A stretch of 57,499 nucleotides of DNA from a virus (taxonomy: Duplodnaviria > Heunggongvirae > Uroviricota > Caudoviricetes), in the IMG/VR virus record IMGVR_UViG_2541047758_000011; one strand, given 5' to 3'. How positions within the stretch are numbered: position 1 is the stretch's first letter; each line of letters starts with the position of its first letter. A program made the translations under genes and the position numbers. This document shows, in pieces, positions 686-56,131 of the stretch. The notes beneath the pieces are model-generated. The model searched no databases. It was not told the origin of the DNA and worked only from the letters and a program-made list of their open reading frames with translations.

Positions 686-686
686 A

Positions 687-6937: not shown

Positions 6938-7094
6938 CAGAACAACAAAGCTGCCTGATAGTGGCCTTTATTTTTGGCATAAATAACAGAATAAACACTG
7001 CACTGTGTATTCATTCCAACGAGTGAATACACGGAGCAATGTCGCTCGTAACTAAACAGGAGCCGACTTGTTCTGATTATTGGAAATCTTCTTC

Positions 7095-7120
7095 GCCCTC
7101 CAGTGTGAGGGCGATTTTTT
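7095..7120 (+). terminator. Rho-independent terminator (gccctccagtgtgagggc + T-run), preceded by a 9-bp perfect inverted repeat at 7005-7032
   Basis: Hairpin plus gatttttt; whole ~125-bp block is repeated at 49441-49562. Confidence 0.65.
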
Positions 7121-7140
7121 ATCTATGAGGATATGAATAG

Positions 7141-7509
7141 ATGTCAAACATCAAAAAATACATCATTGATTACGACTGGAAAGCATCAATAGAAATTGAA
7201 ATCGACCATGACGTAATGACAGAGGAAAAACTTCACCAGATTAATAATTTCTGGTCAGACTCTGAATACCGACTCAATAAACACGGCTCTGTATTAAATG
7301 CTGTATTAATCATGCTGGCGCAACATGCTCTGCTTATAGCAATTTCAAGCGACTTAAATGCATATGGTGTTGTGTGTGAGTTCGACTGGAATGATGGAAA
7401 TGGTCAGGAAGGATGGCCTCCAATGGATGGTAGCGAAGGAATAAGAATTACCGATATCGATACATCAGGAATATTTGATTCAGATGATATGACTATCAAA
7501 GCCGCCTGA
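7141..7509 (+). CDS. ea10: Ea10-like early protein (122 aa)
   Basis: Sits between ral and cIII as lambda ea10 does and has the same length (122 aa). Confidence 0.7.
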   Translation: MSNIKKYIIDYDWKASIEIEIDHDVMTEEKLHQINNFWSDSEYRLNKHGSVLNAVLIMLAQHALLIAISSDLNAYGVVCEFDWNDGNGQEGWPPMDGSEGIRITDIDTSGIFDSDDMTIKAA

Positions 7510-7581
7510 GCGCGGCGTTACCGCATACCAATAACGCTTCACTCGAGGCGTTTTTCGTTATGTATAAATAAGGAGCACACC

Positions 7582-7746
7582 ATGCAATATGCCATTGCAG
7601 GGTGGCCTGTTGCTGGCTGCCCTTCCGAATCTTTACTTGAACGAATCACCCGTAAATTACGTGACGGATGGAAACGCCTTATCGACATACTTAATCAGCC
7701 AGGAGTCCCAAAAAATGGATCAAACACTTATGGCTATCCAGACTAA
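7582..7746 (+). CDS. cIII: CIII protein (FtsH inhibitor)
   Basis: [54 protein letters not shown] recalled as lambda cIII. Confidence 0.9.
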   Translation: MQYAIAGWPVAGCPSESLLERITRKLRDGWKRLIDILNQPGVPKNGSNTYGYPD

Positions 7747-7858
7747 ATTCACTATCGCCACTTTTATTGGCGATGAAAAGATGTTTCGTGAGGCCGTCGA
7801 CGCTTATAAAAAATGGATATTAATACTGAAACTGAGATCAAGCAAAAGCATTCACTAA
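7715..7858 (+). CDS. kil: Kil protein (FtsZ inhibitor)
   Basis: [47 protein letters not shown] recalled as lambda Kil; overlaps cIII 3' end. Confidence 0.85.
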
Positions 7859-8229
7859 CCCCCTTTCCTGTTTTCCTAATCAGCCCGGCATTTCGCGGGC
7901 GATATTTTCACAGCTATTTCAGGAGTTCAGCCATGAACGCTTATTACATTCAGGATCGTCTTGAGGCTCAGAGCTGGACGCGTCACTACCAGCAGATCGC
8001 CCGTGAAGAGAAAGAGGCAGAACTGGCAGACGACATGGAAAAAGGCCTGCCCCAGCACCTGTTTGAATCGCTATGCATCGATCATTTGCAACGCCACGGG
8101 GTCAGCAAAAAAGCCATTACCCGTGCGTTCGATGACGATGTTGAGTTTCAGGAGCGCATGGCAGAACACATCCGGTACATGGTTGAAACCATTGCTCACC
8201 ACCAGGTTGATATTGATTCAGAGGTATAA
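7813..8229 (+). CDS. gam: Gam (RecBCD inhibitor)
   Basis: 138 aa [55 protein letters not shown]... lambda Gam. Confidence 0.93.
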
Positions 8230-8234
8230 AACGG

Positions 8235-9020
8235 ATGAGTACAGCACTCGCAACGCTGGCTGGGAAGCTGGCTGAACGTGTCGGCATGGATTCTGTCGAC
8301 CCACAGGAACTGATCACCACTCTTCGCCAGACGGCATTTAAAGGTGATGCCAGCGATGCGCAGTTCATCGCATTGTTGATCGTCGCCAACCAGTACGGCC
8401 TTAATCCGTGGACGAAAGAAATTTACGCCTTCCCTGACAAGCAGAACGGCATCGTTCCGGTGGTGGGCGTTGATGGCTGGTCCCGCATCATCAATGAAAA
8501 CCAGCAGTTTGATGGCATGGACTTTGAGCAGGACAATGAATCCTGCACATGCCGGATTTACCGCAAAGACCGCAATCATCCGATCTGCGTTACCGAGTGG
8601 ATGGATGAATGCCGCCGCGAACCATTCAAAACCCGCGAAGGCAGAGAAATCACGGGGCCGTGGCAGTCGCATCCCAAACGGATGTTACGGCATAAAGCCA
8701 TGATTCAGTGTGCCCGTCTCGCCTTCGGATTTGCTGGTATCTATGACAAGGATGAAGCCGAGCGCATTGTCGAAAATACCGCATACACTGCAGAACGTCA
8801 GCCGGAACGCGACATCACTCCGGTTAACGATGAAACCATGCAGGAGATTAACACTCTGCTGATTGCCCTGGATAAAACATGGGATGACGACTTATTGCCG
8901 CTCTGTTCCCAGATATTTCGCCGCGACATTCGCGCATCGTCAGAACTGACACAGGCCGAAGCAGTGAAAGCTCTTGGATTCCTGAAACAGAAAGCCACTG
9001 AGCAGAAGGTGGCAGCATGA
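8235..9020 (+). CDS. bet: Bet (Red-beta ssDNA annealing protein)
   Basis: 261 aa [59 protein letters not shown]... lambda Bet. Confidence 0.95.
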
Positions 9021-9697
9021 CACCGGACATTATACTGCAGCGTACCGGGATCGACGTGAGAGCTGTCGAACAGGGGGATGATGCATGGCACAAATTACGG
9101 CTCGGCGTCATCACCGCTTCAGAAGTTCACAACGTGATAGCAAAGCCCCGATCAGGAAAGAAGTGGCCTGACATGAAAATGTCCTACTTCCACACCCTGC
9201 TGGCTGAGGTTTGCACCGGTGTGGCTCCGGAAGTTAACGCTAAAGCGCTGGCCTGGGGAAAACAGTACGAGAACGACGCCAGAACCCTGTTTGAGTTCAC
9301 TTCCGGCGTAAATGTTATTGAATCCCCGATCATCTATCGCGACGAAAGTATGCGCACCGCCTGCTCTCCCGATGGTTTATGCAGTGACGGCAATGGCCTT
9401 GAGCTGAAATGCCCGTTTACCTCCCGGGATTTCATGAAGTTCCGGCTCGGTGGTTTCGAGGCCATAAAGTCGGCTTACATGGCCCAGGTGCAGTACAGCA
9501 TGTGGGTGACGCGAAAAGATGCCTGGTACTTTGCCAACTATGACCCGCGTATGAAGCGTGAAGGCCTGCATTATGTCGTGGTTGAGCGGGATGAAAAGTA
9601 CATGGCGAGTTTTGACGAGATGGTGCCGGAGTTCATCGAAAAAATGGACGAGGCACTGGCTGAAATTGGTTTTGCATTTGGGGAGCAATGGCGATGA
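9017..9697 (+). CDS. exo: Lambda exonuclease (Red-alpha)
   Basis: 226 aa [65 protein letters not shown]... lambda Exo. Confidence 0.95.
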
Positions 9698-9855
9698 AGC
9701 ATCCTCACGATAATATCCGGGTAGGCACGATCACTTTCGTCTACTCCGTTACAAAGCGAGGCTGGGTATTTCCCGGCCTTTCTGTTATCCGAAATCCCCT
9801 GAAAGCACAGCGGCTGGCTGAGGAGATAAATAATAAACGGGGGCTGTATGACTGA
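9694..9855 (+). CDS. Small hypothetical protein (53 aa) overlapping exo stop
   Basis: ATG at 9694; [31 protein letters not shown]...; not in ORF track. Confidence 0.35.
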
Positions 9856-10405
9856 TTTCACCGGAAGCAATACTCCTGCCGAACATCGCGACAGCTGGCG
9901 CACACCACCAGAGATTTTTGCTGCGCTTAATGCAGAGTTCGTTTTTCAACTTGATGCTGCCGCCAGCGAAAAAAACCGACTATGTCGGCTTTTTATCTCA
10001 CAGGAGCAGAACACATTAACCACTTCATGGCCTGAAGCAATGGGATATGCCTCTGGTTATGTCTGGTTGAATCCACCATACAGCAATATTTCCCCTTTTG
10101 TGAAAAAGGCAGCCACTGAAAACAAATTCAGTAGTGTGGGATGTGTAATGTTATTGCCTGCTGACACATCTGTCGGATGGTTTCATGAAGCGATACAAAC
10201 CGCCAGTGAGGTCAGATTCATCACGGCAGGACGACTGGCATTTATTAACCCACTCACTGAGAAACCCGTCAGTGGAAATAATAAAGGCTCGATGCTCATT
10301 ATCTGGCACCCATACCCCCGTACACACTGCCACTTTACGACCGTTGATCGTGGAGAGTTGATGGCGTTCGGCTCAAGGATTCTTGCCCGTCGGGAGGCTG
10401 CATGA
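9848..10405 (+). CDS. Phage N6-adenine DNA methyltransferase (Dam-like, NPPY motif)
   Basis: 185 aa with ...YVWLNPPYSNISPF... motif IV typical of N6-adenine MTases; no adjacent restriction endonuclease seen. Confidence 0.75.
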   Translation: MTDFTGSNTPAEHRDSWRTPPEIFAALNAEFVFQLDAAASEKNRLCRLFISQEQNTLTTSWPEAMGYASGYVWLNPPYSNISPFVKKAATENKFSSVGCVMLLPADTSVGWFHEAIQTASEVRFITAGRLAFINPLTEKPVSGNNKGSMLIIWHPYPRTHCHFTTVDRGELMAFGSRILARREAA

Positions 10406-10481
10406 CAACCACGGAATGCATTTTTCTGGCAGCGGGCTTCATATTCTGTGTGCTTATGCTTGCCGACATGGGACTTGTTCA

Positions 10482-10697
10482 ATGACACCTCAGCAGGAAA
10501 ACGCCCTTCGCAGCATTGCCCGTCAGGCTAATTCTGAAATCAAAAAAGCCAGACAGCAGTTTCCGGATAAAAACGTCGATGACATTTGCCGTAGCGTACT
10601 AAAGAAGCACCGCGAAACGGTAACGCTGATGGGATTCACACCGACTCATTTAAGCCTGGCGATCGGCATGTTAAACGGCGTCTTTAAGGAACGGTGA
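10482..10697 (+). CDS. Hypothetical protein (71 aa)
   Basis: ORF from ATG 10482 (MTPQQENALRSIARQANSEIKKARQQ...). Confidence 0.45.
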   Translation: MTPQQENALRSIARQANSEIKKARQQFPDKNVDDICRSVLKKHRETVTLMGFTPTHLSLAIGMLNGVFKER

Positions 10698-10795
10698 ACA
10701 TGAAAAGCAAAATCATCAGGGAGCTACAGGCTCCTTTTTTATTGTTCGCATTCATCCTCAAGCGTATTAACCAACAATTCAGGGATTAATGGAAG

Positions 10796-11014
10796 ATGGC
10801 AGACATCATTGATTCAGCATCAGAAATCGAAGAATTACAGCGCAATACAGCAATAAAAATGCGTCGTCTGAACCACCAGGCTATATCTGCCACTCATTGT
10901 TGTAAGTGTGGCGATCCCATAGATGAACGAAGACGCCTGGCCGTTCAGGGTTGTCGGACTTGTGCAAGTTGCCAGGAGGAGATCGAACTTAAGAACAAAC
11001 AATGGGGATTGTGA
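10796..11014 (+). CDS. TraR/DksA-family C4 zinc-finger protein
   Basis: 72 aa with CxxC...CxxC (HCCKCGDPIDERRRLAVQGCRTCASCQ) typical of DksA/TraR fold. Confidence 0.7.
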   Translation: MADIIDSASEIEELQRNTAIKMRRLNHQAISATHCCKCGDPIDERRRLAVQGCRTCASCQEEIELKNKQWGL

Positions 11015-11061
11015 TGGCCTCAAAGCAGCAAATTTCAACATCGTCCAACTGAGGTGTAAAA

Positions 11062-11340
11062 ATGTTCAGAATCATTTTTCCTAACACCTGGTACGTCGAC
11101 CACCACGGCACTCCCTGCAAAATCCTGCGTTCTACCCACAACAAAGTTCACTACATCCGAAAAGGCAGAACATGTATCGCCAGCATGTTCCGCTTTAATC
11201 ATGACTTTGAACCTGTGAATAAAGCTGATGCAGATCGGATAGCAGAAGAGATCGAAACGGCAGAACACATTAAGAAGTTACGTGACATGCGTTCAAAAAG
11301 CAGAGGTAACCATGGAATCATACAGCCTCACACTCGATGA
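11062..11340 (+). CDS. Hypothetical protein (92 aa)
   Basis: ORF upstream of xis; no recognised motif. Confidence 0.4.
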   Translation: MFRIIFPNTWYVDHHGTPCKILRSTHNKVHYIRKGRTCIASMFRFNHDFEPVNKADADRIAEEIETAEHIKKLRDMRSKSRGNHGIIQPHTR

Positions 11341-11662
11341 GGCCTGTCAGTTTCTTAAGATATCCAGACCAACCGCCACCAACTGGATACGAACAGGCCG
11401 CCTACAGGCAACACGCAAAGACCCCACTAAACCAAAATCTCCTTACCTCACAACGCGACAAGCCTGCATTGCGGCGCTTCAGTCTCCGCTGCATACTATC
11501 AAGGTGAGCGCGGGTGATGGCATAACAGAGGAAAGAAAATGTCACTCTTCCGCAGAAGTGAAATATGGTACGCCAGTTTCACATTGCCGAACGGTAAAAG
11601 ATTTAAACAGTCTCTTGGAACAAAGGACAAAAGGCAGGCGACAGAGCTCCATGACAAGCTAA
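11312..11662 (+). CDS. xis: Excisionase-like protein (Xis), overlapping int start by 124 nt
   Basis: [45 protein letters not shown]... HTH directly upstream of int; ORF stays open into int. Confidence 0.55.
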
Positions 11663-12702
11663 AGGCTGAAGCATGGCGGGTCAGCAAACTTGGTGAAATA
11701 CCTGATATGACGTTCGAGGAGGCGTGTATCAGGTGGCTCGAAGAGAAAGCACATAAAAAATCACTGGACGATGACAAAAGCCGGATCGGATTCTGGCTTC
11801 AACATTTCGCAGGAATGCAACTAAGAGACATTACTGAATCAAAAATTTATTCAGCAATGCAGAAAATGACGAACCGGCGTCATGAGGAAAACTGGAAACT
11901 CAGGGCAGAAGCATGCAGAAAAAAAGGGAAACCTGTTCCAGAATACACGCCAAAACCAGCGTCCGTTGCAACGAAGGCTACGCATCTTTCATTTATAAAG
12001 GCCCTACTAAGAGCCGCAGAGCGTGAATGGAAAATGCTGGATAAGGCACCAATTATTAAAGTGCCTCAACCAAAGAATAAACGGATCCGCTGGCTGGAGC
12101 CCCATGAAGCACAAAGGCTGATTGATGAATGTCCGGAGCCATTAAAGTCTGTTGTTGAATTTGCACTGGCAACAGGTTTAAGACGCTCGAACATCATCAA
12201 CCTTGAATGGCAACAAATAGATATGCAGCGCCGGGTGGCATGGATAAACCCGGAAGAGAGTAAATCAAACCGCGCAATCGGCGTTGCGCTGAATGATACT
12301 GCATGTCGCGTTTTGAAAAAACAAATCGGGAATCATCACCGTTGGGTATTTGTGTACAAGGAAAGCTGTACCAAACCAGACGGAACGAAAGCGCCAACAG
12401 TAAGGAAGATGCGGTATGACGCAAACACAGCCTGGAAAGCGGCGCTGAGACGAGCTGGTATTGATGATTTCAGATTTCACGACTTGAGACACACCTGGGC
12501 AAGTTGGCTGGTTCAAGCCGGAGTCCCGTTGTCAGTGTTACAGGAAATGGGTGGCTGGGAGTCTATCGAAATGGTTCGTCGATATGCTCACCTCGCGCCT
12601 AATCACCTTACCGAACACGCACGGCAAATAGACTCGATTCTGAACCCATCGGTCCCAAATTTGTCCCAGTCAAAAAATAAGGAAGGTACTAATGATGTGT
12701 AA
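11539..12702 (+). CDS. int: Tyrosine integrase (prophage A)
   Basis: 387 aa with C-terminal catalytic region ...[42 protein letters not shown]; stop 14 bp before tRNA 3' fragment. Confidence 0.9.
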
Positions 12703-12762
12703 CTTATTGATTTAAATGGTGCCGATAATAGGAGTCGAACCTACGACCTTCGCATTACGAAT
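12699..12762. repeat. 64-bp att core direct repeat (copy 1), identical to 56038-56101; includes 46-nt 3' fragment of tRNA-Thr (12717-12762)
   Basis: gtaacttattgatttaaatggtgccgataataggagtcgaacctacgaccttcgcattacgaat is present at both positions by direct comparison. Confidence 0.9.
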
Positions 12763-13091: not shown

Positions 13092-13763
13092 ATGGTGATT
13101 GATGCAATGTTAAGCGTTCAGATGACTCCACAAGCAAAAGTTAGCTTCGAGGAGCAATGTTTTTTTCATGCTTCATGTCTTGTTGTTGCCCCAATAAATG
13201 TTGGAGCATTCTCCTACTTTGGCGCTAATTGTATGCTCGGCGGCTTTACGATGGGTAGATTTTGTTCAGTTGCTCCAGGAGTAAAAATTGGCCTTGGCGA
13301 GCATGAAACTGGGTATTTTTCTACGCATCCTTTTTTCTTTGGATCAAAAAATGGTTTTAAAATCCCTGATGGTATAGGAATGCAGCGCGACCTCTCTCAA
13401 CAGAAGCATGGTATACCAAGAATTGGTCATGACGTATGGATAGGTGCAAATGCGGTTATCAGGCGAGGTATAACTATTGGTACTGGCGCTGTTATTGCTG
13501 CTGGCGCTATTGTCACCAAAAATGTCGAGCCATATTCAATCGTAGGTGGCGTTTCTGCAAAACACCTAGGGTACAGATTTGATGAATCAATCATCAAAGA
13601 GTTACTGGATAGCCAATGGTGGGAATATGATTTAAGCTCATTTATTGGGATTGATACAAGGACACCGACGACTTTTTTAGAGCAGTTTAATGCTGTAAAA
13701 GATAAAAAGAAGGCATCTTATAAGAGATTTACAATTCTTCCATCCGGTGAAATTGTTGAATAG
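13092..13763 (+). CDS. Hexapeptide-repeat (left-handed beta-helix) acetyltransferase, xenobiotic/CatB-Vat-like
   Basis: 223 aa with XAT-like blocks: [25 protein letters not shown] and [43 protein letters not shown]; AT-rich gene between attL and tailspike. Confidence 0.75.
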
Positions 13764-13782: not shown

Positions 13783-16149
13783 TTAAATAAACATAAGAAT
13801 AAACATCAGAAGTTCTTCGTATCTGATGCCATACTGATAGCCAGCAGGTTTAATAATAACCTGCCTTCCTGTGTAATATTCCTCGTCGTACCACTCTCCT
13901 GTTTCATTGTTTTTAACACTCCTAATCAATACCTCTGGAGCATAAATATCATCCCATTCATCATAACACCAGAACGCATAGTTATTAGGGTCAAGACCGT
14001 ATTTTCTGAGAATATTACCTACAGTTTGTGCACCAACGCCGAAATGAATCCGAGCGCCATCACTCTTGATCTTTACTGCATCTTTAAATTTAAACCTCCA
14101 GATATTTTCCTTTATTTCAAGCGCAGCAAGACGCTCTGATTCTGTTGTTTTCTCGTCAGCCTTAATACGCAATTTAAGCTCTTCATTCGACGTGTTGATA
14201 CTGCCAGTACCAGCGTATACCTGTGACCATCGAAATGCTGATGTTCCGTTTGAGTTAACATTATCAACAGTTGGTTTTATAAGGCCAGAAAAATGAGTTT
14301 CAGGTGTATTAATATATGTATATGCACCTGCTGTACTACGAGTCCTTAACTCAAAGCTGTCTATATCAACACCAGTCCTACGAATTATAAGGAAGTTATT
14401 TCCTGCGGAACCAGTATCGGTTTGAGTGCTAACAGACAATCCGTTTCGTGTATCAATACGTATATTCTTCCCGTTCTCCAGCGAAGCAGAATTATGTAGA
14501 TACAGCGAGTTGTCAGTGTAGAGATTGTGTTTACCTACATTGCTAAATGTATAAGTATTGCTTGTGTTATCACTGTTCCTATGGAATTGCTGAAGAGTGT
14601 AGGCAGAAGATGCTCCGTATCCATCACAATGGAAATTTCTGCACAGCTGCAAATCGAATAACAATACGGTGTCAGCATTAATGCTCACATTATTAAAGCA
14701 TGTTGCAAAGTTGGCACCATACTGTGAATTGGAATCGCCAATCTGTGCGCACACATCAAGCAAACCAAAAGTTACATTGGTAAAGTTATTTGCATCACCG
14801 GCGTCAAGAACAATCCCTTTCTTAGTCCCTGAATACCCTCTGGCAGTGCCGATCTCAACTCCCTGGAATGAACACACGCGAGCACGACTAAGCTTAAGAC
14901 CAACCCATTCCAGACCATGATCGTAACCTTTTGCTGCGCGGTGAATAAACATACCATTCATGATGAGAAGGAATCTGTTATCCAGCCGTACTGGTTCAAG
15001 TTGGGCATTAATACCAACATTTGTGCATATACATTCACCATAAGCATAACGATTCGTTTCAAATATACGATCATCAGCGTCGTAAATGCCTCGTAATGCC
15101 TTGGCGGCATCAATATTAAGCAATGTAAAATATGTCTTCTGCTTAATTTCAAAAAAATTTGCAACATTATGCGTTGTGATATCACTCACACGCATTGATA
15201 AAATCCCCTCTTCTGGAGCGGTGCGAATGAATCCATCAAGGAACTGTTCATTATAACTTTTGGCTATCTGATAACATCCAACAGCATCAATGCGTTCGAT
15301 TGTGAATTGCCAACTATCACCGCAGTTAAAATTCCATTTCCAGCCGTATTTCTGTGCAAATTCATCATATTCAACATTTGCAGTCTCAGAACAGAAAGAT
15401 AAAAATCTAAATGTTGGTTTTGGCCTTAGATGGTTAAGCCCGGCACCTCTTGGGGTATATATGGCATTATCTCCATTCCCACCTTTTGTTTTAACTGTAA
15501 GGTGACTTAAACCAAATTCAATATCATATTTTGTTGGTGCAGCGAAAACAAAGCCGTCTTTTGGTGATGTGGTATTGTCAAACACAATAACCGTTTCACC
15601 CTGCCCATCACCGTACATATTTACTGGTGGTATATTAACGGGGCCAGTCAAACTATATGTTCCAGTTGGCACATATAGTTTTCCACCCTCTCCAATAGCA
15701 TTTGCTGCTGCAATAAATGCCACCGTATCATCGTTAACACCGTCACCTTTCGCCCCATAATGCTGTGGCGTAATTAACAGCATACGGTCAGAAAAAATCT
15801 CTGTCCTAAGTTGATCAGGATCGTATTTTAATACATTTGGAAAATAAAACTGCTGAGTGCCATATGCATCATATACAGCCATAGAATGGCCTTTCACAGT
15901 TACGAATTTGGCAATCTGCCCGTTATATACAGGATACCCGCCAGCGTTAATGATGATTGGCTGTGCAACAGGAACGTGAGAACCATCCTCATTCTCTACA
16001 TAAACCTGAATCTGGTTTTCAGGATTTACCGGGTCAGTGTCAATTTTACCGATATAAATTTTGCCATTGGCTACGGCTTTAAAAGAACGCGCCATAGTGA
16101 AGAGTTGCGAAGGCATACTCACTACAACATTGGCTGTAATGTCTGTCAT
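13783..16149 (-). CDS. Tailspike protein (P22 gp9-type N-terminal head-binding domain, divergent beta-helix domain, C-terminal chaperone-like region)
   Basis: N-terminus [46 protein letters not shown] matches P22 tailspike head-binding domain; [14 protein letters not shown] pectate-lyase-like motif; rest unlike P22. Confidence 0.85.
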
Positions 16150-16281
16150 TTAATTTGCTCCAGATACAATGAATCGCCGCAGCATGGCTACGGTTGGCAT
16201 TTGTTACATACCGAAACGGTACGATTGTTGATTTGTACAGTGGGTTTTACGATGCCATTCCACCCATTTGGTGAGGCATTG

Positions 16282-16539
16282 ATGATGTACAGCAAATACG
16301 ATGAGGCGCAGTTCCACTTGAGGCTTACACACGAGTTGCACGCTAAGATTAAGCAGCGTGCAAAAATGAATAACAGGTCTATCAATTCCGAAATTGTGGC
16401 TACGATGGAAGAATCACTCTCCAAACCATCACCTGTAAGCGGGTATCGTGATGAAGAAGAGAGGCTGGCCTCATTAATCTCGGAACGAGTAAAAGAAGTT
16501 GTGGCTGATATCCTTAGAAAAGAAAAAACCCGCGATTAA
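16282..16539 (+). CDS. mnt: Mnt-like ribbon-helix-helix repressor
   Basis: ...RSINSEIVATMEESLSKPSPVSGYRDEEERLA resembles P22 Mnt (..SKPSPVTGYR..); start chosen at ATG 16282 inside a longer track ORF. Confidence 0.7.
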   Translation: MMYSKYDEAQFHLRLTHELHAKIKQRAKMNNRSINSEIVATMEESLSKPSPVSGYRDEEERLASLISERVKEVVADILRKEKTRD

Positions 16540-16548
16540 GCGGGTTTA
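16522..16548. terminator. Bidirectional hairpin terminator (aacccgcgattaagcgggtt)
   Basis: Stem-loop flanked by A-run on one side and T-rich on the other, between convergent genes. Confidence 0.55.
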
Positions 16549-16553
16549 GTTGG

Positions 16554-16775
16554 TTAGTTATCAAAAAGTCCGTACGTTTCTTCTTCTTCAGGTGTAAGGG
16601 GAAGAATCTCTACTCTATCTATAGATACCTTTTCAATGTACCCATGAGGTCTACTTAAAATTAAAGCTCTCTCATGCCACAGAACTCCAAGAATGTGATA
16701 CCTTCCAGCATCGCCTTTTACCCTGGCTCTTCCTTTGATTCTTGGCGGCATAATGCCATATTTTTTCTTTGCCAT
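16554..16775 (-). CDS. Hypothetical small basic protein (73 aa)
   Basis: ORF MAKKKYGIMPPRIKGRARVKGDAGRYHILGVLWHER...; no recognised family. Confidence 0.45.
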   Translation of the reverse strand: MAKKKYGIMPPRIKGRARVKGDAGRYHILGVLWHERALILSRPHGYIEKVSIDRVEILPLTPEEEETYGLFDN

Positions 16776-16995
16776 TATGCAACATTACTCCCATGAATCA
16801 GGTGTTGTAGTGCTTTAACACCTTCCGCATTGTAGCGGAATGCTTCCACCTGTTTGCTGGAATGCGCAGATTTATCCAGGAAGAACTTCCCGTACTGCTC
16901 AGTTTTGAGGTTGTTTGCGTTAGCAATGCGACCAATCTTGTTGGCCGTTACTCCAAGCTGCTCTGCAACCTCCCCTGCTGAGTAGTAATGCTCTT
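16775..16995 (-). pseudogene. C-terminal gene fragment truncated by IS911 (possible regulatory/antirepressor remnant)
   Basis: Reading frame runs out of IS911 left end; only ~73 codons are non-IS sequence. Confidence 0.4.
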
Positions 16996-17067
16996 TGAAG
17001 TGGTTTACTGAATTTGGCCACCTGAACAGAGGTGATATGCTCACCTCAGAACAACACAGGTGCCATA

Positions 17068-18215
<1,148 letters not shown>

Positions 18216-18245
18216 CTCGGTGGCCAGTTTTTGTTGACCACTTCA

Positions 18246-18756
18246 ATTCTATTGCCGGAAGAGGTATTGCATTAAAACCAACGAGCGGGTTGATTATACT
18301 TGCTGCCGCTGTCTGCTTTGCCTCAGGCGCAAGATTTGGCATCAGATCGAACAGATTGGTAACAGCTTCAACCGTCATTTTCAATGTTCGCGCTTGACGA
18401 TACTCAACAAGTCCACTCGCTGATTTACCGCTTTTAATGTGCGCTTCTTGCATACTTTCAAGTTGGTCTACCAGTGAGCGGCGAACGGCTTTTGACTCGC
18501 GAGCGGCAACTCGCAATGCTTGCTTGATTGACATCTCAATGATAACCATCGAAGTTTTGTTCGCTTTTTGCACTACACTTTTTGTGTAGTGCTCTCCATC
18601 CAATTCATCTTCAATTTTCTCGATGAATTTGTTATTACGAACCTCCGGCTCACCGCACTGTCTACGAGCCTGATTTACCATCTCAAGCAGGCGCTGGCTG
18701 TCAATGGTTTTATCCGTGACAACGGATCCGATGTTTGCTACATTCTTAAAAGTCAT
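18246..18756 (-). pseudogene. N-terminal fragment of Rha/antirepressor-like regulatory gene interrupted by IS911
   Basis: ORF MTFKNVANIGSVVTDKTIDSQRLLEMVNQARRQCGEPEVRNNKFIEKI... runs into IS911 right end; family call is tentative. Confidence 0.4.
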
Positions 18757-18843
18757 TAGGCATTCCTTATGTGGTAGTAAGGGTGTGACATAGGCCGCCA
18801 GCAGCACACTGGCGGTTTTCTTTTGCGCTGTCCTGTGCACCAA

Positions 18844-19482
18844 TCAATGAATCCATTCCTCGCCGCTAAGTTTTGCCAGCATTGGCTGAGCGTTCTTTAC
18901 GACAAAATTGTTGGTATCAAGATTCTTCATTTCACGAAGAAGTGATTTCTTGGTTTCTTCTGACATATAGCGAGTCTCATATGCAATATCGTATATTCTT
19001 CCTGAAAGCTCAGAACCAATTTGCTTCATTCCTGGGTAGATGTGTTTGCACATTTGTTGACTCTTCTCCATCCACAATTGTAAGTAGCAGAGATTAACCA
19101 GTTCTTCGTCAGTAAACTGTTTTGCAATCGGTGAGCATTCTGCCTGCCGATCCAAAATATCCAGCACCCAGCGGCGGAACTCTTTGGCCTTGGGCGTAGA
19201 AGCAAACATCGCCACCAAGTGAGCGCCTCGGAGCGAGTAAACTCTGACCGATTTGTTACGTAAGCTATTGTTTATTCCGTTGACCTTCATATTGAGGGTC
19301 AATGACATTGAGTCGGAAAATTCGTCAGCATTACGGGCATAAATTTGGCTGATGGCATCAGTTTTTTTATAGCCGAGAGCCTTAGCTAGTTCGGTGGAGG
19401 TGAACCAGATAGACCCGCCCTCTGTTACAGGGTTAAAAGTGAATCCTTGGAAGTTATAATCTGATTTTGCTACAATATTCAT
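18844..19482 (-). CDS. ant: Antirepressor (Bro-N domain) Ant-like
   Basis: MNIVAKSDYNFQGFTFNPVTEGGSIWFTSTELAKALGYKKTDAISQ... Bro-N/antirepressor-like N-domain, downstream of arc. Confidence 0.7.
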   Translation of the reverse strand: MNIVAKSDYNFQGFTFNPVTEGGSIWFTSTELAKALGYKKTDAISQIYARNADEFSDSMSLTLNMKVNGINNSLRNKSVRVYSLRGAHLVAMFASTPKAKEFRRWVLDILDRQAECSPIAKQFTDEELVNLCYLQLWMEKSQQMCKHIYPGMKQIGSELSGRIYDIAYETRYMSEETKKSLLREMKNLDTNNFVVKNAQPMLAKLSGEEWIH

Positions 19483-19555
19483 GTTAGTTTCCTTGCATAC
19501 GGTTACTGACATAGAGGCCCGGTTTGTGTTCGCGCACTGCCGGGCTTCACTATTT

Positions 19556-19729
19556 TTATTGGATGACAACATCGCCCTTTGCCTCAAGTTTCATCAATAA
19601 CTCCATTCGATAAGCTATCTCTGCCTGAATTGACCTATGGCATCTTTTTGCTGATTCGCGGATATGTGAATCAACCTTTTCTGTAAAACGAACCTGACGC
19701 GGCTTGATGGAAGATATCTTTTCAGTCAT
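19556..19729 (-). CDS. arc: Arc-like ribbon-helix-helix repressor (57 aa)
   Basis: Manual translation MTEKISSIKPRQVRFTEKVDSHIRESAKRCHRSIQAEIAYRMELLMKLEAKGD resembles P22 Arc; below ORF track threshold. Confidence 0.65.
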   Translation of the reverse strand: MTEKISSIKPRQVRFTEKVDSHIRESAKRCHRSIQAEIAYRMELLMKLEAKGDVVIQ

Positions 19730-19828
19730 TATGCACTCCTGTTTTTGAAAAACTCATAATCTCACTTTTTGCAGTTTGATTATTCACTCACACTCAGTAT
19801 GAGTCAATGAATTTTTTATGGTGAACTA

Positions 19829-20470
19829 ATGAATTTTGACGATCAATTCCCATCAAGAGTATCTCTGGCAAGACAGTCCAGGGGTATGACGCAGGCGCAG
19901 TTGTCAAAATTAGCTGGTGTTGTTCAACGTCAAATAGCTGCATACGAGGGTGGTGAGGCTAAACCACGGCTTCGTGTATTGCAGGCATTAGCCAACGCAT
20001 TAGGTACTACGGCTGAGTGGTTAGCTCTAGGTGAAGGTCAGGGTCCAGGAACAAAAAACGTCATGCCTGACGTTCTGGTAAAGCAAATACCAATTCTCAA
20101 ACTAGATGAAGTTATGCATTACCTAAACACAGGTGAACATTCATCGTCTAGATTTCATCCGGCAATATACAATGTTGGTGACTCTGCATTTGCATTGACT
20201 ATTGAAGGTGAAGCTATGACTACAAGTTCAGGTATTAGCTTTCCCAGAGGATCGGTTGTCACGTTCAGCCCTCTAGTAAAAGCTAAAAGCAAAGATTATG
20301 TAATAGCATCATTGGATAAAGAGCAAATATTGAGCTTCAAACAGGTTTACATTGGTGAAATAGAGACAAACCTAGTATCCCTAAACCCAATGTATCCTAA
20401 TATTCTTGTTAGAAATGAAGATGTTAGTATTTTGGCAACCGCAGTTTACCTTGAAATCCCGTTGCTTTGA
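19829..20470 (+). CDS. XRE-HTH / LexA-cI-like S24 domain protein with nucleophile Ser replaced by Ala (predicted non-cleavable)
   Basis: N-terminal HTH (MTQAQLSKLAGVVQRQIAAYEGGEAKP); C-domain aligns with lambda cI CTD but has EGEAM where cI has EGNSM; Lys of dyad retained (SFKQV); AT-rich. Confidence 0.75.
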   Translation: MNFDDQFPSRVSLARQSRGMTQAQLSKLAGVVQRQIAAYEGGEAKPRLRVLQALANALGTTAEWLALGEGQGPGTKNVMPDVLVKQIPILKLDEVMHYLNTGEHSSSRFHPAIYNVGDSAFALTIEGEAMTTSSGISFPRGSVVTFSPLVKAKSKDYVIASLDKEQILSFKQVYIGEIETNLVSLNPMYPNILVRNEDVSILATAVYLEIPLL

Positions 20471-37500: not shown

Positions 37501-37973
37501 ACCTCAATCTCTCTGACCGTTCCGCCTGCTTCTTTGAATTTTGAAATCAGACTGTCAGCCTTATGCTCGAACTGACCATAACCAGCCCCGGGCAACGAAG
37601 CCCAGATATTGCTGCAACGGTCGATTGCCTGACGGATATCACCGCGATCAATCATCGGCAAAGCGCCACGCTCTTTAATCTGTTGCAATGCCACAGCGTC
37701 CTGGCTTTTCGGAGAGAAGTCTTTCAGGCCAAGCTGCTTACGGTATGCATCCCACCAACGTGAAAGAAGCTGGTAACGTCCGGCGGCTGTTGATTTGAGT
37801 TTGGGGTTTAGCGTGACAAGTTTGCGAGGGTGATCGGAGTAATCAGTGAATAGCTCTCCGCCAACAATGACGTCATAACCATGATTTCTGGTTTTCTGAC
37901 GTCCGTTATCAGTTCCCTCTGACCACGCCAGCATATCGAGGAACGCCTTACGTTGATTATTGATTTCCACCAT
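37497..37973 (-). CDS. R: Endolysin R (lytic transglycosylase)
   Basis: 158 aa [51 protein letters not shown]... lambda R. Confidence 0.95.
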
Positions 37974-38280
37974 CTTCTACTCCGGCTTTTTTAGCAGCGA
38001 AGCGTTTGATAAGCGAACCAATCGAGTCAGTACCGATGTAGCCGATGAACACGCTCGTTATATAAGCGAGATTGCTACTTAGTCCGGCGAAGTCGAGAAG
38101 GTCACGAATGAACCAGGCGATAATGGCGCACATCGTTGCGTCGATTACTGTTTTTGTAAACGCACCGCCATTATATCTGCCGCGAAGGTACGCCATTGCA
38201 AACGCAAGGATTGCCCCGATGCCTTGTTCCTTTGCCGCGAGAATGGCGGCTAACAGGTCATGTTTTTCTGGCATCTTCAT
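37957..38280 (-). CDS. S: Holin S
   Basis: 107 aa [39 protein letters not shown]... lambda S107/S105 dual start. Confidence 0.95.
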
Positions 38281-38522
38281 GTCTTACCCCCAATAAGGGG
38301 ATTTGCTCTATTTAATTAGGAATAAGGTCGATTACTGATAGAACAAATCCAGGCTACTGTGTTTAGTAATCAGATTTGTTCGTGACCGATATGCACGGGC
38401 AAAACGGCATGAGGTTGTTAGCGCAACCCCTTGCCACCCGCTTTCACGAAGATCATGTGTAGAAGGCCGCAGCGTAACTATCACTGATGAATTCAGAATA
38501 GCCAGTGGCTACGGCTCAGTTA

Positions 38523-38598
38523 TGGTGCTGGTTAACGGACTTGAACCGCTACCCATTCGCTTACAAGACGACTGCTCTACCATTAGAGCTAAACCAGC
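38523..38598 (-). tRNA. Phage tRNA-like gene, anticodon read as UGU (Thr); one mismatch in anticodon stem
   Basis: Manual fold: 7-bp acceptor stem (GCTGGTT/AACCAGC), D-arm GCTC/GAGC, T-loop TTCAAGT, discriminator A + CCA; anticodon loop CTTGTAA. Confidence 0.5.
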
Positions 38599-38603
38599 AT
38601 GTT

Positions 38604-38678
38604 TGGCGGGACAGCGTGGACTCGAACCACGATAAGAAGGTTAACAGCCTTCCGTAATGACCTTTATACGACTGACCC
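38604..38678 (-). tRNA. Phage tRNA-like gene, anticodon read as GUU (Asn); atypical D-arm
   Basis: Manual fold: T-arm CGTGG-TTCGAGT-CCACG, anticodon stem GAAGG/CCTTC with loop CTGTTAA, 3' ...GCCA; acceptor 6/7 pairs, D-stem 3/4. Confidence 0.45.
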
Positions 38679-38682
38679 AAAT

Positions 38683-38730
38683 AAAAAATCCCGAAACCGT
38701 TATGCAGGCTCTAACTATTACCTGCGAACT
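38683..38730 (-). terminator. tR' terminator of the late 6S transcript
   Basis: atcccgaaac...gtttcgggat + T6 (minus strand), recalled as lambda tR'. Confidence 0.85.
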
Positions 38731-38839
38731 GTTTCGGGATTGCATTTTACAGACCTCTCAGCCTGCGATGGTTGGAGTTCCAGACGATGCGTCGAAGTGA
38801 CCAACTAGGCGGAATCGGTAGTAAGCGCCGCCTCTTTTT

Positions 38840-38915
38840 ATCTCACTACCACAACGAGCGAATTAACCCATTGTTGGGTCAAATTTACCCAACTTTATTC
38901 AAAAAGTCAATATCA
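38840..38915 (-). promoter_or_regulatory. Late promoter pR' with qut region
   Basis: Minus-strand TTGACT -35 and downstream sequence resembling lambda pR'/qut between Q and tR'. Confidence 0.7.
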
Positions 38916-38952
38916 TGCCGTTAATATGTTGCCATCCGTGGCAATCATGCTG

Positions 38953-39576
38953 CTAACGTGTGACCGCGTTCAAAATGTTGTCTGCGATTGACTCTTCCTT
39001 GTGGCATTGAACCACCAGAGCGTCATACAGCGGCTTAACAGTGCGTGACCAGGTGGGTTGAGTAAGATTTGGGATTAGCATCGTTACAGCGCGATATGCG
39101 GCGCTTGCTGGTATTCTTGAATAGCCGACACCTTTGCATCTTCCGCATTCTTTCTCGACAACTCTCCCCCACTGCTCTGTTTTTGCTATATCAACCGCAC
39201 GGCCTGTACCGTGGCAATCTCTGCACCTTGCTCCCGGCGTCGCGGCACTACGGCAATAATCCGCATAAGCGAATGTTGCGAGCACTTGCAGTACCTTTGC
39301 CTTAGTATTTCCTTCAAGCTTTGCCACGCCACGGTATTTCCCCGATACCTTGTGTGCAAATTGCATCAGATAGTTGATAGCCTTTTGTTTGTCATTCTGG
39401 CTGAGTTCGTGCTTACCACAGAATGCAGCCATTCCGAATCCGGCTTGTGATTGCGCCATCCCCATAGCAGCCATCACATCAGTACCGGAAAGAGAGTCAG
39501 AAGCCGTAGCCCGTGGTGAGTCGCTCATCATCGGGCTTTTTGGCGAATGAAATTTAGCTACACTTTCGAGTCTCAT
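38953..39576 (-). CDS. Q: Late antiterminator Q
   Basis: 207 aa MRLESVAKFHSPKSPMMSDSPRATASDSLSGTDVMAAMGMAQSQAGFGMAAFCGKHEL... lambda Q. Confidence 0.95.
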   Translation of the reverse strand: MRLESVAKFHSPKSPMMSDSPRATASDSLSGTDVMAAMGMAQSQAGFGMAAFCGKHELSQNDKQKAINYLMQFAHKVSGKYRGVAKLEGNTKAKVLQVLATFAYADYCRSAATPGARCRDCHGTGRAVDIAKTEQWGRVVEKECGRCKGVGYSRIPASAAYRAVTMLIPNLTQPTWSRTVKPLYDALVVQCHKEESIADNILNAVTR

Positions 39577-43409: not shown

Positions 43410-44659
<1,250 letters not shown>

Positions 44660-45449
44660 CATCAACATCCATCGAGATGAATATTTCCTCAAACCTGTCG
44701 AGGTTGTGATACTCAAACTCAATCCACTGTTGCTTAGCGCCTTTCCCGCCACCAAACGGCACGGATAACGCCGAGATGCCGTATTGCGCATAGCTCATAC
44801 AATCAATTTCGCCTTCGCAAAGCACAACCGCCCTCACGCCAGCGTCCAGAGCCTGCCATCCGAACAGACAAGGTTCGCAATCACCTTCTGCCATAATGAC
44901 TTTCTTCCCGTCCGGGCGCTCAGTGCTGATTCGCTTGACCTGCAACAACTCACCATCGCGTTTGTACGGAAGCACCAGAGCATCCAGTTCTCGCTCTCCA
45001 TTCCACACCTTGCCGCTGACAACCTCGTAGCGCTTTACGACTTCTGGCGATATGCCACGCGATTGCAGGTACTCAAGATGGGATTCTGTTCTGGTAACGT
45101 AGCGGGCGATTTTCTTGCGATCAGGTCTGGAGAATTTCTTCTCACGTTTGGCATCGAAATGGTGATCGTCATCCTTGATACCGAGAAATGCTTTCGCTTC
45201 CTGCATAGCCTGATGCAGGTTAATTCCACGACATGCCATCCACAAATCAAGCATGTCACCGCCGTCTCCCTCAGCGAAATCAGCCCATTTTTTCTTGCCG
45301 CTAAGGTTGACCTTAAGGCTGTTTCCCTTGTCACCGTTGACGTTACCGGCAACCCACTCATGCCCCTCTTTCTTGCCATTTGGCAACAGGTGCGGAGCCA
45401 CCCTGTCAACCTGCGCCCAAAGCAGGTCGCTAAGTTCACTTGGCGTCAT
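44660..45449 (-). pseudogene. N-terminal (primase, Toprim) part of primase-helicase gene interrupted by IS911
   Basis: ..VVLCEGEIDCMSYAQYGISALSVPFGGG.. Toprim motif; reading frame runs into the IS. Confidence 0.7.
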
Positions 45450-45556
45450 GATTCCCTCAGATTGAGATTTTTAAACCAGAAATCGACAAACGAAATACTT
45501 AACCAGCCGTGGTTATAACCAGCGACCAGTAGCGATTTGATTTTTGATTTCATGGT

Positions 45557-46417
45557 TCACCTGTCGAAAAACACGTAGCCAGTTTTCGATACGGTGATTG
45601 CGGATGATGGTTTGGATTGTGGTTGAATGGTTTCTGGCTTCTCGTCGTTCCAGCGCTGACCGTTCAGGTAGCTCGATGGTAATAACCTGTCGAATCCGAA
45701 CTGCTTACCATTCCTGCATGCGATGTCTTCTGCCAGCATCGTGGCAAACTCTCTTGCCGTACCCCTGGTAGTTTTACGCCATTCCCTGAACTGTGTTCTG
45801 AATGCCGAAGCTGCGTTTTTCTTCCCGGCTTTCCGCATGCCTGCACACCAGAATATTTCCTCGAATGCCTTGTCGGTTTCTTCGTGACGCTCATGTGATT
45901 TTTCACACTCCGTCCGAACACTTTCGGACATAGTGTTTTTATTATTTCTTTTTTCTTTTGTAATAGTTTCTTTTGTGTGTCCCTGTTTTGGTGACAGCGC
46001 TGTCACCGTTTTGGTGACACTTTTTGTCACCAATGCAGTGACATTATCACCAGAGTAGTGACACCCTTCGATTTGCCATTCCTCGATGTTCTTGTTAGGA
46101 CCGATTTGCTGGCCTTCGCGAAGGATAACCTTCATCGCGATAAGCTCATTCTTGGCCTTGTTTACCTTCTGTCTTGGCAGCCTGGTAATTTGAGCTAACT
46201 GACTATCAGAGATGCGATCCATCTTTTTACCGTAGCCGTATGTTTTACGGCATATGGCGTGGGCAACCTTGCTCTGATTTTTCGTTAAATCTGCGCCGAT
46301 AAGCTCTTCATACAGGGCATTTGCAAGACGGGTATAACCATCTTCAACTTCTGCCACACGACGCTCCACAGGCCGTTGTGAAGGCCTTAAATGTGTTACG
46401 GTTGCAAGATTACTCAT
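45557..46417 (-). CDS. Replication initiator, O-like N-terminal domain
   Basis: ..[57 protein letters not shown].. parallels lambda O N-domain; contains iterons. Confidence 0.8.
45985..46066. repeat. Origin iterons (GGTGACA/TGTCACC repeats, about six copies) inside the O-like gene
   Basis: ggtgacagcgctgtcaccgttttggtgacactttttgtcaccaatgcagtgacattatcaccagagtagtgacacc. Confidence 0.75.
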
Positions 46418-55004: not shown

Positions 55005-56041
55005 AAGCAGAAGCGTGGAGAGTAAAAAATCTCGGGGAATCACCGAAAAAGCTATTCAAGGAAGCCTGCATACGGTGGCTTCGTGAGAAATCGGATAAGA
55101 AGTCCATTGATGATGACAAGAGCATTATATCGTTCTGGATGTTGCACTTCAGAGAAACCATTCTCTCAGACATAACAACAGAAAAAATAATGGAGGCGGT
55201 AGACGGGATGGAAAACCGCCGCCATCGCCTGAACTGGGAAATGAGCCGGGACAGGTGTTTGCGGCTTGGCAAGCCAGTGCCGGAGTATAAACCAAAGCTG
55301 GCAAGCAAAGGAACGAAGACGCGGCATCTGGCAATACTTCGCGCTATTCTCAATATGGCTGTTGAATGGGGATGGCTTGACAGGGCGCCCAAAATATCAA
55401 CACCACGCGTTAAGAATGGACGAATCAGATGGCTTACAGAGGAGGAATCGAAGCGCCTGTTTGCAGAAATTGCTCCTCATTTCTTCCCTGTGGTCATGTT
55501 TGCAATCACGACAGGCCTTCGCCGTTCCAACGTTACAGACCTTGAGTGGTCACAGGTCGATCTGGATAAGAAAATGGCATGGATGCACCCTGATGAAACA
55601 AAAGCTGGCAATGCGATCGGAGTTCCTCTTAACGAAACCGCATGCCAGATATTAAGAAAACAGCAGGGTCTCCATAAGAGATGGGTGTTTGTCCACACCA
55701 AACCTGCCTACCGAAGCGACGGAACAAAAACAGCAGCGGTAAGGAAGATGAGAACCGACAGCAACAAGGCATGGAAGGGAGCGTTAAAGCGGGCAGGCAT
55801 TAGCAACTTCCGCTTCCATGACCTGAGGCATACTTGGGCAAGCTGGCTGGTTCAGTCCGGTGTCTCTCTTCTTGCACTTAAAGAGATGGGAGGATGGGAA
55901 ACTCTAGAAATGGTTCAAAGATACGCCCACCTTTCAGCCGGGCATCTCACCGAGCACGCGAGCAAAATCGATGCGATTATAAGTCGCAATGGCACAAATA
56001 CGGCACAAGAGGAGAACGTGGTTTACTTAAATGCGAGGTAA
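54881..56041 (+). CDS. int: Tyrosine integrase (prophage B)
   Basis: 386 aa, C-terminal ..[42 protein letters not shown]; stop 14 bp before tRNA-Thr 3' end. Confidence 0.9.
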   Translation: MSIKLRGGTWHCDFVAPDGSRVRRSLETSDKRQAQELHDRLKAEAWRVKNLGESPKKLFKEACIRWLREKSDKKSIDDDKSIISFWMLHFRETILSDITTEKIMEAVDGMENRRHRLNWEMSRDRCLRLGKPVPEYKPKLASKGTKTRHLAILRAILNMAVEWGWLDRAPKISTPRVKNGRIRWLTEEESKRLFAEIAPHFFPVVMFAITTGLRRSNVTDLEWSQVDLDKKMAWMHPDETKAGNAIGVPLNETACQILRKQQGLHKRWVFVHTKPAYRSDGTKTAAVRKMRTDSNKAWKGALKRAGISNFRFHDLRHTWASWLVQSGVSLLALKEMGGWETLEMVQRYAHLSAGHLTEHASKIDAIISRNGTNTAQEENVVYLNAR

Positions 56042-56101
56042 CTTATTGATTTAAATGGTGCCGATAATAGGAGTCGAACCTACGACCTTCGCATTACGAA
56101 T
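56038..56101. repeat. 64-bp att core direct repeat (copy 2), spanning int stop, spacer and 3' 46 nt of tRNA-Thr
   Basis: Identical to 12699-12762 by direct comparison. Confidence 0.9.
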
Positions 56102-56131
56102 GCGCTGCTCTACCAACTGAGCTATATCGGC
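56056..56131 (-). tRNA. thrW: tRNA-Thr (anticodon CGU)
   Basis: Reverse complement GCCGATATAGCTCAGTTGGTAGAGCAGCGCATTCGTAATGCGAAGGTCGTAGGTTCGACTCCTATTATCGGCACCA folds as canonical cloverleaf; matches E. coli thrW from memory. Confidence 0.9.

Follow-up and report, generated by a model that had tools for sequence, protein, structure and literature searches.

The locus studied here raises the question of why a temperate phage should carry a tRNA-Asn gene and a tRNA-Thr gene in the leader of its late transcript, upstream of the holin gene. The window, that is, the whole stretch of 57,499 nucleotides that was analysed, contains three tRNA genes according to ARAGORN, all on the minus strand: tRNA-Thr(UGU) (38523–38598), tRNA-Asn(GUU) (38604–38678) and tRNA-Thr(CGU) (56056–56131). 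The first two are 76 and 75 nucleotides long, respectively, both with an encoded CCA end, and are separated by five nucleotides read from the sequence as AACAU (38599–38603, minus strand). Both are full-length matches to the Rfam model RF00005 in a search of the whole window, with 61.0 bits (E = 8.5e-11) for tRNA-Thr and 55.3 bits (E = 3e-09) for tRNA-Asn, about twice the gathering score of 29. An earlier reading of this DNA from its letters alone (the sequence-only reading) had proposed two late-strand tRNA genes of 75–76 nucleotides with UGU and GUU anticodons, and had called for scoring by ARAGORN and by covariance model; its coordinates, strand, lengths and anticodons all turn out to be exact. 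Two small ORFs that overlap the tRNAs (38505–38657 and 38599–38808, both on the plus strand) were rejected as genes; they are ORF-listing artefacts, and RefSeq annotates the tRNAs alone there.

For each of the two genes the cloverleaf is the minimum-energy fold, and most of the canonical details (a 7-bp acceptor stem, U8, A14, G18–G19, U33, a T-loop of the UUCRA type and a 3' CCA) are found in both. The small departures from canonical structure that had also been pointed out are present: tRNA-Asn has U4·U69 and U13·U22 mismatches and a variable loop of 4 nucleotides, while tRNA-Thr has a G27·A43 mismatch, a U31·G39 wobble pair and U14 instead of the near-universal A14. The exceptions formed by U4·U69 and U13·U22 in tRNA-Asn, and by a pyrimidine at position 14 and G27·A43 in tRNA-Thr, are kept across the whole family of related genes described below. 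The window tRNA-Asn is the commonest allele of this family, identical in 83 of the collected copies. The window tRNA-Thr differs from the copies in cassettes of the phage 21/Sf6 type in being a rare U14/U31 allele, of which there are three copies in total, including this one, the majority allele being C14/C31. E. coli AsnRS recognizes the GUU anticodon and G73, and E. coli ThrRS recognizes G1–C72, C2–G71, G35 and U36. The first set (anticodon G34-U35-U36, discriminator G73) is read in the phage tRNA-Asn sequence and the second is present in the window tRNA-Thr and in the family majority, and the phage tRNAs would be expected to be charged by the host AsnRS and ThrRS.

The order of the elements on the late (minus) strand is Q, PR', tR', tRNA-Asn, AACAU, tRNA-Thr, a 242-nucleotide spacer and the holin gene S. 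The Q gene (38953–39576, minus strand, from the ORF list) encodes a lambda-type late antiterminator of 207 amino acids and lies in a block (window 39577–38681) that is 96.5% identical to lambda 43885–44781, which contains the annotated Q. Inside the same lambda-homologous block, a promoter scan finds the late promoter PR' (TTGACT-17 nt-TAAATT, 38882–38910, minus strand). The lambda-type terminator tR' (38681–38741, minus strand) is made of a hairpin (38741–38687; −26.9 kcal/mol, z = −5.8) and a U-tract (38686–38681), whose run UUUUUUAUUU abuts G1 of tRNA-Asn, in agreement with the proposed position of the genes directly downstream of tR' on the late strand. From the CCA end of tRNA-Thr onward the DNA is again homologous to lambda: window 38525–37900 is 97.4% identical to lambda 44942–45566, and on the minus strand the non-coding spacer (38281–38522) is followed by S (37957–38280), an ORF of the lambda S107/S105 type that is homologous to the annotated lambda S and is the first gene of the lysis cassette. 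Between the two homologous blocks, 155 bp of the window (38526–38680) substitute for 160 bp of unrelated lambda DNA (44782–44941). The tRNA genes had been described as inserted relative to lambda; what the alignment shows is the exchange of one cassette for another at a mosaic joint rather than a pure insertion. The idea that the 160 bp of lambda are a decayed tRNA pair was rejected, their alignments being no better than those of shuffled sequences (205 of 500 shuffles reach the observed score in global alignment and 52 of 500 in local alignment). In lambda 43800–45600, ARAGORN finds no tRNA and Rfam gives no match at E ≤ 1.

The tRNA-Asn/Thr pair belongs to a 43.3-kb P22-like prophage, which carries on the minus strand the genes for terminase, portal, scaffold, coat, ejection proteins and tailspike, with Q and S of the lambda type. 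This prophage is bracketed by a 64-nucleotide exact direct repeat (12699–12762 and 56038–56101) that holds the 3' part of thrW (56056–56131). We rejected the possibility that the pair consists of att-site remnants, both genes being full length and 17.4 kb away from the nearest att repeat. The arm of a second, lambda-like prophage is present at 1–12762, with a cIII thermoregulator at 7569–7627.

The sequence-only reading did not recognize the pair as a known cassette. It is a previously described accessory element of lambdoid phages, P22-like ones included, that belong to E. coli, Shigella and Salmonella, already annotated in Sf6, SfI, BTP1, Kapi1 and HK446-like phages. A 401-bp segment that encloses the pair has matches in 110 phage records, either over its full length, lambda-type tR' included (HK446, mEp506, phiv205-1 and Kapi1), or starting at the tRNAs (Sf6, BTP1, SPN9CC, SEN22, vB_SosS_Oslo and many others). 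The GenBank record of Sf6 gives tR', followed by tRNA-Asn and tRNA-Thr, each "similar to phage 21", and the cassette has been under discussion since phage 21. Matches to the tRNA-pair region are also found in 999 of 5426 complete E. coli genomes, with a 100% match in strain EC01307, and each listed best match carries RefSeq annotations for both tRNAs. The cassettes of phage 21, Sf6, SfI, ST64T, BTP1, Kapi1, HK446 and mEp506 have the same genes in the same order, the same 5-nucleotide spacer and the same site, directly after tR' and ahead of the holin gene, and the DNA identity between the described cassettes and that of the window is 95.5–97.5% (95.5% for Sf6). What differs is the upstream module, with Q/PR'/tR' of the lambda type in the window, HK446, mEp506 and Kapi1, and of the phage 21 type in Sf6 and most P22-like phages. 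[quoted passage not shown] Our literature searches found no experimental study of the Asn/Thr cassette.

Conservation of the pair was studied in 120 viral contigs, collected with a search pattern that placed no constraint on the Thr anticodon stem or on the tRNA-Asn, to which were added 80 contigs obtained via the holin protein and 17 loci from species-representative genomes. The scan of the latter used an 18-mer from the Asn D-arm, and 7 of the 17 loci are real and carry the tRNA-Asn, the chance matches being mostly outside Enterobacteriaceae. The Asn-then-Thr arrangement is found in 110 of the 120 viral loci, and the spacer between the two genes is AACAT in 56 copies and AATAT in 53. Nucleotide diversity, computed over 91 distinct sequences, amounts to 0.0074 for tRNA-Asn and 0.003 for tRNA-Thr, whereas it climbs from 0.04 to 0.23 along the spacer between tRNA-Thr and the holin gene; it is thus about 10- to 20-fold lower in the tRNAs. 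Several changes are compensatory, at pairs 6–67 (A-U to G-C), 7–66 (G-C to A-U) and 28–42 (A-U to C-G) of tRNA-Asn and at pairs 3–70, 4–69 and 6–67 of tRNA-Thr, and the covariation score is above those of all 500 shuffles and all slid-register controls, in what are small sets of closely related sequences (24 Asn and 11 Thr variants). The mismatches themselves do not vary: U4·U69 and U13·U22 are present in all 24 Asn variants and G27·A43 in all 11 Thr variants. This invariance makes them family traits rather than signs of decay, and these shared non-canonical positions may be functionally meaningful. We conclude that both are probably functional tRNA genes. They are not a constant part of the late region, as the cassette is present in only 18 of 80 contigs that encode a 100% identical holin and is absent from the other 62. 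The cassette thus does not follow the late genes to which it is linked, and it behaves as a dispensable accessory.

How would these tRNAs be expressed? PR' is the sole promoter-like site found by the promoter scan in the region 38200–39000; as there is no separate site for the tRNAs, they are expected to come from PR' transcripts that pass tR'. In lambda, PR' is not known to be repressed in lysogens. The U-tract runs directly into G1 of tRNA-Asn in at least three unrelated types of tR', those of phage 21 and lambda and a third one. RNA-seq of BTP1 lysogen cultures gave more than 100 TPM for both homologous tRNA genes, and the BTP1 late operon starts directly after them (PMC7067206). This signal could result from read-through of the terminator combined with tRNA stability, or from frequent spontaneous induction of BTP1. 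The sequence-only reading had proposed expression only in Q-antiterminated late transcripts: the route from PR' through tR' is upheld, but strictly late expression of the pair is doubtful because of the level reached in BTP1 lysogens. Q antitermination must nevertheless strongly raise the amounts of the tRNAs.

The reading that we favour, with a probability of about 0.5, is that this known cassette provides functional Asn(GUU) and Thr(UGU) tRNAs that raise decoder supply during virion protein synthesis, and that it is beneficial but dispensable. With no promoter of their own, the tRNAs would be reached by polymerases from PR' only past tR', presumably with high efficiency when these are modified by Q and otherwise weakly, through read-through. 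Both tRNAs would be excised from the leader of the late transcript by RNase P and 3'-processing enzymes of the host, and after charging, the added molecules would boost the supply of two decoders at the time of heavy virion protein production, with a benefit that is probably clearest for tRNA-Thr(UGU). A point against this reading is that the conserved oddities (pyrimidine 14 in tRNA-Thr, U4·U69 in tRNA-Asn) could reduce translational efficiency.

Codon usage supports the favoured reading more for one tRNA than for the other. Host tRNA-Asn is abundant and encoded by four gene copies; tRNA-Thr(UGU) of K-12 is encoded by a single-copy gene and is the only known reader of ACA. The sequence-only reading had suggested that codon usage in the late genes be compared with host tRNA supply. 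A comparison of the 18 late genes of the window prophage (5967 codons) with 31 K-12 genes (12612 codons) shows a strong enrichment for ACA (17.4 versus 4.9 per 1000 codons) and a slight one for Asn codons (48.8 versus 38.5 per 1000). When 40 tRNA species are ranked, demand is increased 3.55-fold for Thr-UGU (5th by fold, 3rd by absolute excess) and 1.27-fold for Asn-GUU (14th by fold, 5th by absolute excess). Codon supply thus explains tRNA-Thr reasonably well and tRNA-Asn poorly, and the proposal that the pair supplies tRNAs for late-gene codon use holds for the former (ACA, 3.5-fold) and hardly for the latter. Demand is increased by a higher factor for Arg-UCU (9.6-fold), Arg-CCU (9.1-fold), Ile-CAU (5.2-fold) and Gly-UCC (3.6-fold), none of which is carried by the phage, and AGA, AGG, AUA and GGA accordingly outrank both ACA and the Asn codons in enrichment with no matching phage tRNA. 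Among phages devoid of the cassette, lambda uses less ACA and fewer Asn codons in its late genes (10.1 and 36.1 per 1000), as expected if the cassette answers codon demand, but P22 makes a demand comparable to that of the window prophage (13.1 and 53.4 per 1000). The presence of the cassette in only part of the contigs that share an identical holin also argues against codon supply.

A different function, which we regard as possible but tentative, is counter-defence. The pair would consist of stem variants without U39 that duplicate two of the three tRNAs cleaved by AriB, the nuclease of PARIS, and would act as spares or decoys against AriB or related stem-cutting nucleases, the slot between tR' and the holin gene being a site where structured RNAs are swapped. 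Whether as spares that maintain the decoding of ACA and AAY codons after the host copies are cut, or as competitive decoys, the phage tRNAs would play the part of the tRNA-Lys, tRNA-Thr and tRNA-Asn of T5, and this more specific proposal is equally tentative. The main targets of AriB are three tRNA species, Lys-UUU, Thr-UGU and Asn-GUU (Belukhina et al., 2025; PMC12409363), and the cassette contains exactly two of them. Cleavage occurs between positions 40 and 41, in U36-A-A-U39-C40|A41, and in tRNA-Lys it is abolished by the U39 to A mutation, strongly reduced by A41 to C and impaired by U16 to C (PMC12409363). Both phage tRNAs are devoid of the U39 that AriB requires. Positions 36–41 of tRNA-Thr(UGU) read UAAUCA in the host thrU, UAAGCG in the cassette, UAAGCA in T5 and UAAUGA in T4; those of tRNA-Asn(GUU) read UAAUCC in the host asnT, UAACCU in the cassette and UAAGUU in T5, T4 having no such tRNA. 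The cassette thus has G39-C40-G41 in tRNA-Thr and C39-C40-U41 in tRNA-Asn where the hosts have U39-C40-A41 (thrU) and U39-C40-C41 (asnT), and in both phage tRNAs A16 replaces the U16 of thrU and asnT. G39 is common to the cassette tRNA-Thr and to that of T5, which is a member of a rescuing set: the T5 variants of the three tRNAs jointly rescue cells and phages (PMC12409363). Lambda, which lacks the cassette, is restricted by PARIS (PMC9122126). Counter-defence would account for the otherwise puzzling tRNA-Asn and for a pattern of presence and absence that is typical of accessory counter-defence genes. It also fits with the other tRNAs encountered in the same slot, mostly ANN decoders (Arg-UCU, Ser-GCU, Ile-GAU and CAU species), a class also targeted by HepS, which attacks Thr-GGU first, then Thr-UGU, Thr-CGU, Ile-GAU and Ser-GCU (PMC13043305).

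Several observations weigh against counter-defence. The prime target of AriB, tRNA-Lys(UUU), is absent from all of the approximately 200 loci examined, and the T5 tRNA-Lys was needed for rescue in every reported case (PMC12409363). Every tRNA of non-host origin would vary in the anticodon stem, and little weight can for this reason be given to the substitutions at positions 39 and 41. In their anticodon loops the phage tRNAs do not differ from those of the host, so that loop cutters (HepS, nucleases of the PrrC or colicin type) are not obviously evaded, and ANN decoders are also readers of rare codons, which makes this argument overlap with codon supply. No paper linking the cassette to PARIS or any other defence system was found in our literature searches. 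In the window itself, comparison of ten accessory ORFs with Pfam revealed no PARIS or other tRNA-targeting system.

The two virulent phages with which the cassette can be compared differ from it in several respects. The anti-PARIS tRNAs of T5 include the same Thr and Asn anticodons, and U39 is lost in both sets, with G39 shared by the two tRNA-Thr. However, the tRNA sequences are unrelated (about 60–65% identity), T5 has a tRNA-Lys which the window cassette lacks, and T5 carries about 24 tRNA genes, compared with two genes in the late leader of a temperate phage, for which resistance to AriB is a prediction from sequence. T4 escapes PARIS when provided with the T5 tRNA-Lys alone (PMC12409363). 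Like the window prophage it encodes a tRNA-Thr(UGU), and its need for tRNA-Lys alone would fit with an adequate tRNA-Thr of its own, but this tRNA keeps U39 (UAAUGA) and A14 and is part of a cluster of eight tRNAs.

The slot itself suggests a third explanation, which concerns RNA processing. In a few relatives it contains rarer tRNA arrays, Asn-Phe-Thr-Arg(UCU), Ser(GCU)-Thr-Arg(UCU)-CAU species or Ile(GAU)-Thr. The arrays in which Arg(UCU) and CAU species adjoin a tRNA-Thr of the cassette type recall the ileZ-argN-argO cluster, which in lambdoid phages that encode Shiga toxin lies after Q/PR' and before stx (reportedly Plunkett, 1999; Schmidt, 1997, as cited in PMC3636060). This cluster fills the same late-leader slot, beyond Q and the late terminator, and the role proposed for it, late-gene decoding, is also the same, but its tRNA species are different and match AGA, AGG and AUA, the rarest codons of E. 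coli, a far better fit to codon compensation than tRNA-Asn here. In relatives that have no tRNA, two other elements are found. The first forms a long hairpin (GCACAACAGGTAAGAGCA...TGCTCTT..CGTTGTG), in which the inserts vary. The second has a co-varying closing helix (GUGGUG/CGCCAC versus GUGCUG/CAGCAC), and one version shows a perfect T-arm and an acceptor-like 3' strand, with a below-threshold score of 20 bits for the tRNA-like domain of tmRNA in Rfam. A hammerhead-like motif (CUGACGAG...CGAAAC) in a 428-nucleotide variant of the slot, at locus L216, was considered as a ribozyme, which is not supported, with no Rfam match at E ≤ 0.1. The elements of the tRNA-less slots lend slight support to the idea that the slot favours structured RNAs, possibly processed by RNase P.

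The tRNAs might accordingly act as punctuation, their cleavage detaching the PR' leader and the tR' hairpin from the late mRNA of about 25 kb and leaving a 5' end that would set the stability or translation of the lysis-gene mRNA. We consider this improbable. The constant position of G1 of tRNA-Asn at the U-tract, whatever the type of tR' upstream, is in its favour, as is the replacement of the tRNAs in tRNA-less relatives by other structured cassettes, including the mimic of a T-arm plus acceptor. But anticodons, synthetase identity elements and an encoded CCA are not needed in a processing signal, yet they are kept, and 30 of the 80 contigs with an identical holin lack the downstream anchor sequence that delimits the slot. 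P22 also speaks against punctuation, with about 300 nucleotides between tR' and the holin gene 13 and no tRNA there that is annotated or detected by ARAGORN; its 5' spacer resembles the commonest of these 30 anchor-less contigs.

Least probable of all is the view that the tRNAs are non-functional hitch-hikers carried with the Q-to-lysis module, either decaying pseudogenes or leftovers of recombination with host tRNA genes, for although they have non-canonical features (pyrimidine 14, G27·A43, U4·U69 and U13·U22), are dispensable (missing from P22 and lambda as well as from the 62 contigs with the same holin) and in one E. albertii contig form a chimera of the phage tRNA-Thr with the host thrU, this view is opposed by their low diversity relative to the flanking spacer, by compensatory double substitutions in their stems, by the invariance of the supposed defects across diverged lineages, by Rfam scores roughly double the threshold, by the maintenance of the cassette beside at least three unrelated Q/tR' modules and by the strong representation of the BTP1 copies in RNA-seq.

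In conclusion, the pair itself adds nothing new, and its value lies in the lead that it gives on function. Roughly a fifth of the complete E. coli genomes have a match to this region. We favour an increased supply of two decoders during virion protein synthesis. The counter-defence reading, if true, would explain why a tRNA-Asn abundant in the host is duplicated in the phage, why the cassette turns over among identical late regions and why lambda is sensitive to PARIS. PARIS is a widespread defence borne by prophages and satellites, and the work published in 2025 shows that Thr-UGU and Asn-GUU are among its targets; counter-defence would then mean that temperate phages use small tRNA cassettes to withstand such systems rather than to match codon usage.

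In relatives without tRNA genes (loci L147, L153, L155, L161, L194 and L216), the slot between the late terminator tR' and the holin gene is filled by modular structured cassettes that lie about 120-430 nt upstream of holin. One cassette type forms a long hairpin whose inserts vary; another has a closing helix that co-varies (GUGGUG/CGCCAC versus GUGCUG/CAGCAC). Lambda itself carries one version of the slot cassette (160 bp, lambda positions 44782-44941; fold z = -2.2). The variant found at positions 2200-2258 of both L153 and L194 has a perfect T-arm (GCCGGTTCGATTCCGGC) and an acceptor-like 3' strand, and in Rfam it aligns weakly with the tRNA-like domain of tmRNA, scoring 20.2 bits (E about 2e-4), short of the gathering score of 47; it could be a tRNA-like mini-helix. 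The 428-nt variant of L216 (1834-2261) contains a candidate hammerhead-like core motif (CUGACGAG...CGAAAC), and no Rfam ribozyme family matched this variant at E <= 0.1.

Rare enlarged tRNA arrays occupy the same slot in L010, L021, L040, L062, L086 and L095, either as Asn-Phe(GAA)-Thr-Arg(UCU) or as Ser(GCU)-Thr-Arg(UCU) followed by a CAU species. Among the 120 viral contigs scanned, further loci carry Ile(GAU)-Thr or CAU-Thr, and every array partner except Phe decodes ANN codons. In L138 (about 5473-5706), a contig of Escherichia albertii NBRC 107761, the gene after the phage tRNA-Asn is a chimera, with the phage tRNA-Thr as its 5' part and thrU, the host tRNA-Thr(UGU) gene, as its 3' part; a host-type tRNA-Gly(UCC) comes directly after it. 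ARAGORN made no call for the chimera, which arose either by recombination of the prophage tRNA with the host thrU operon or as an artefact of assembly.

RNA-seq of phage Kapi1 revealed an antisense signal across the tRNAs, and a similar signal was reported for BTP1 in the interval from the tRNAs to holin (PMC12922286). The matching region of the window is 38281-38700 on the + strand, antisense to the late genes; a consensus promoter scan of the + strand of 38200-39000 detected no promoter-like site.

The P22-like prophage (43.3 kb) is flanked on both sides by an exact 64-nt direct repeat (12699-12762 and 56038-56101) that includes the 3' part of thrW, the tRNA-Thr(CGU) gene (56056-56131, - strand). 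The thrW site is also occupied by a second, lambda-like prophage arm (1-12762), in tandem with the P22-like prophage. This neighbouring arm has its own integrase, which ends at 12702, and at 7569-7627 (+ strand) it matches the lambda cIII thermoregulator RNA perfectly (RF01804, 88.5 bits).

The immI-like region (15886-20470) encodes an Arc-like repressor, a Bro-N/P22 antirepressor, an S24-peptidase repressor and an IS3-family transposase with an rve domain (17397-18215, + strand), an arrangement reminiscent of the annotated IS911 insertion of Sf6. Adjoining the prophage end, just past the tailspike gene, lies a hexapeptide-repeat acetyltransferase gene (13092-13763, + strand), whose product, by analogy with Sf6 oac, may be an O-antigen acetylase that acts in serotype conversion.
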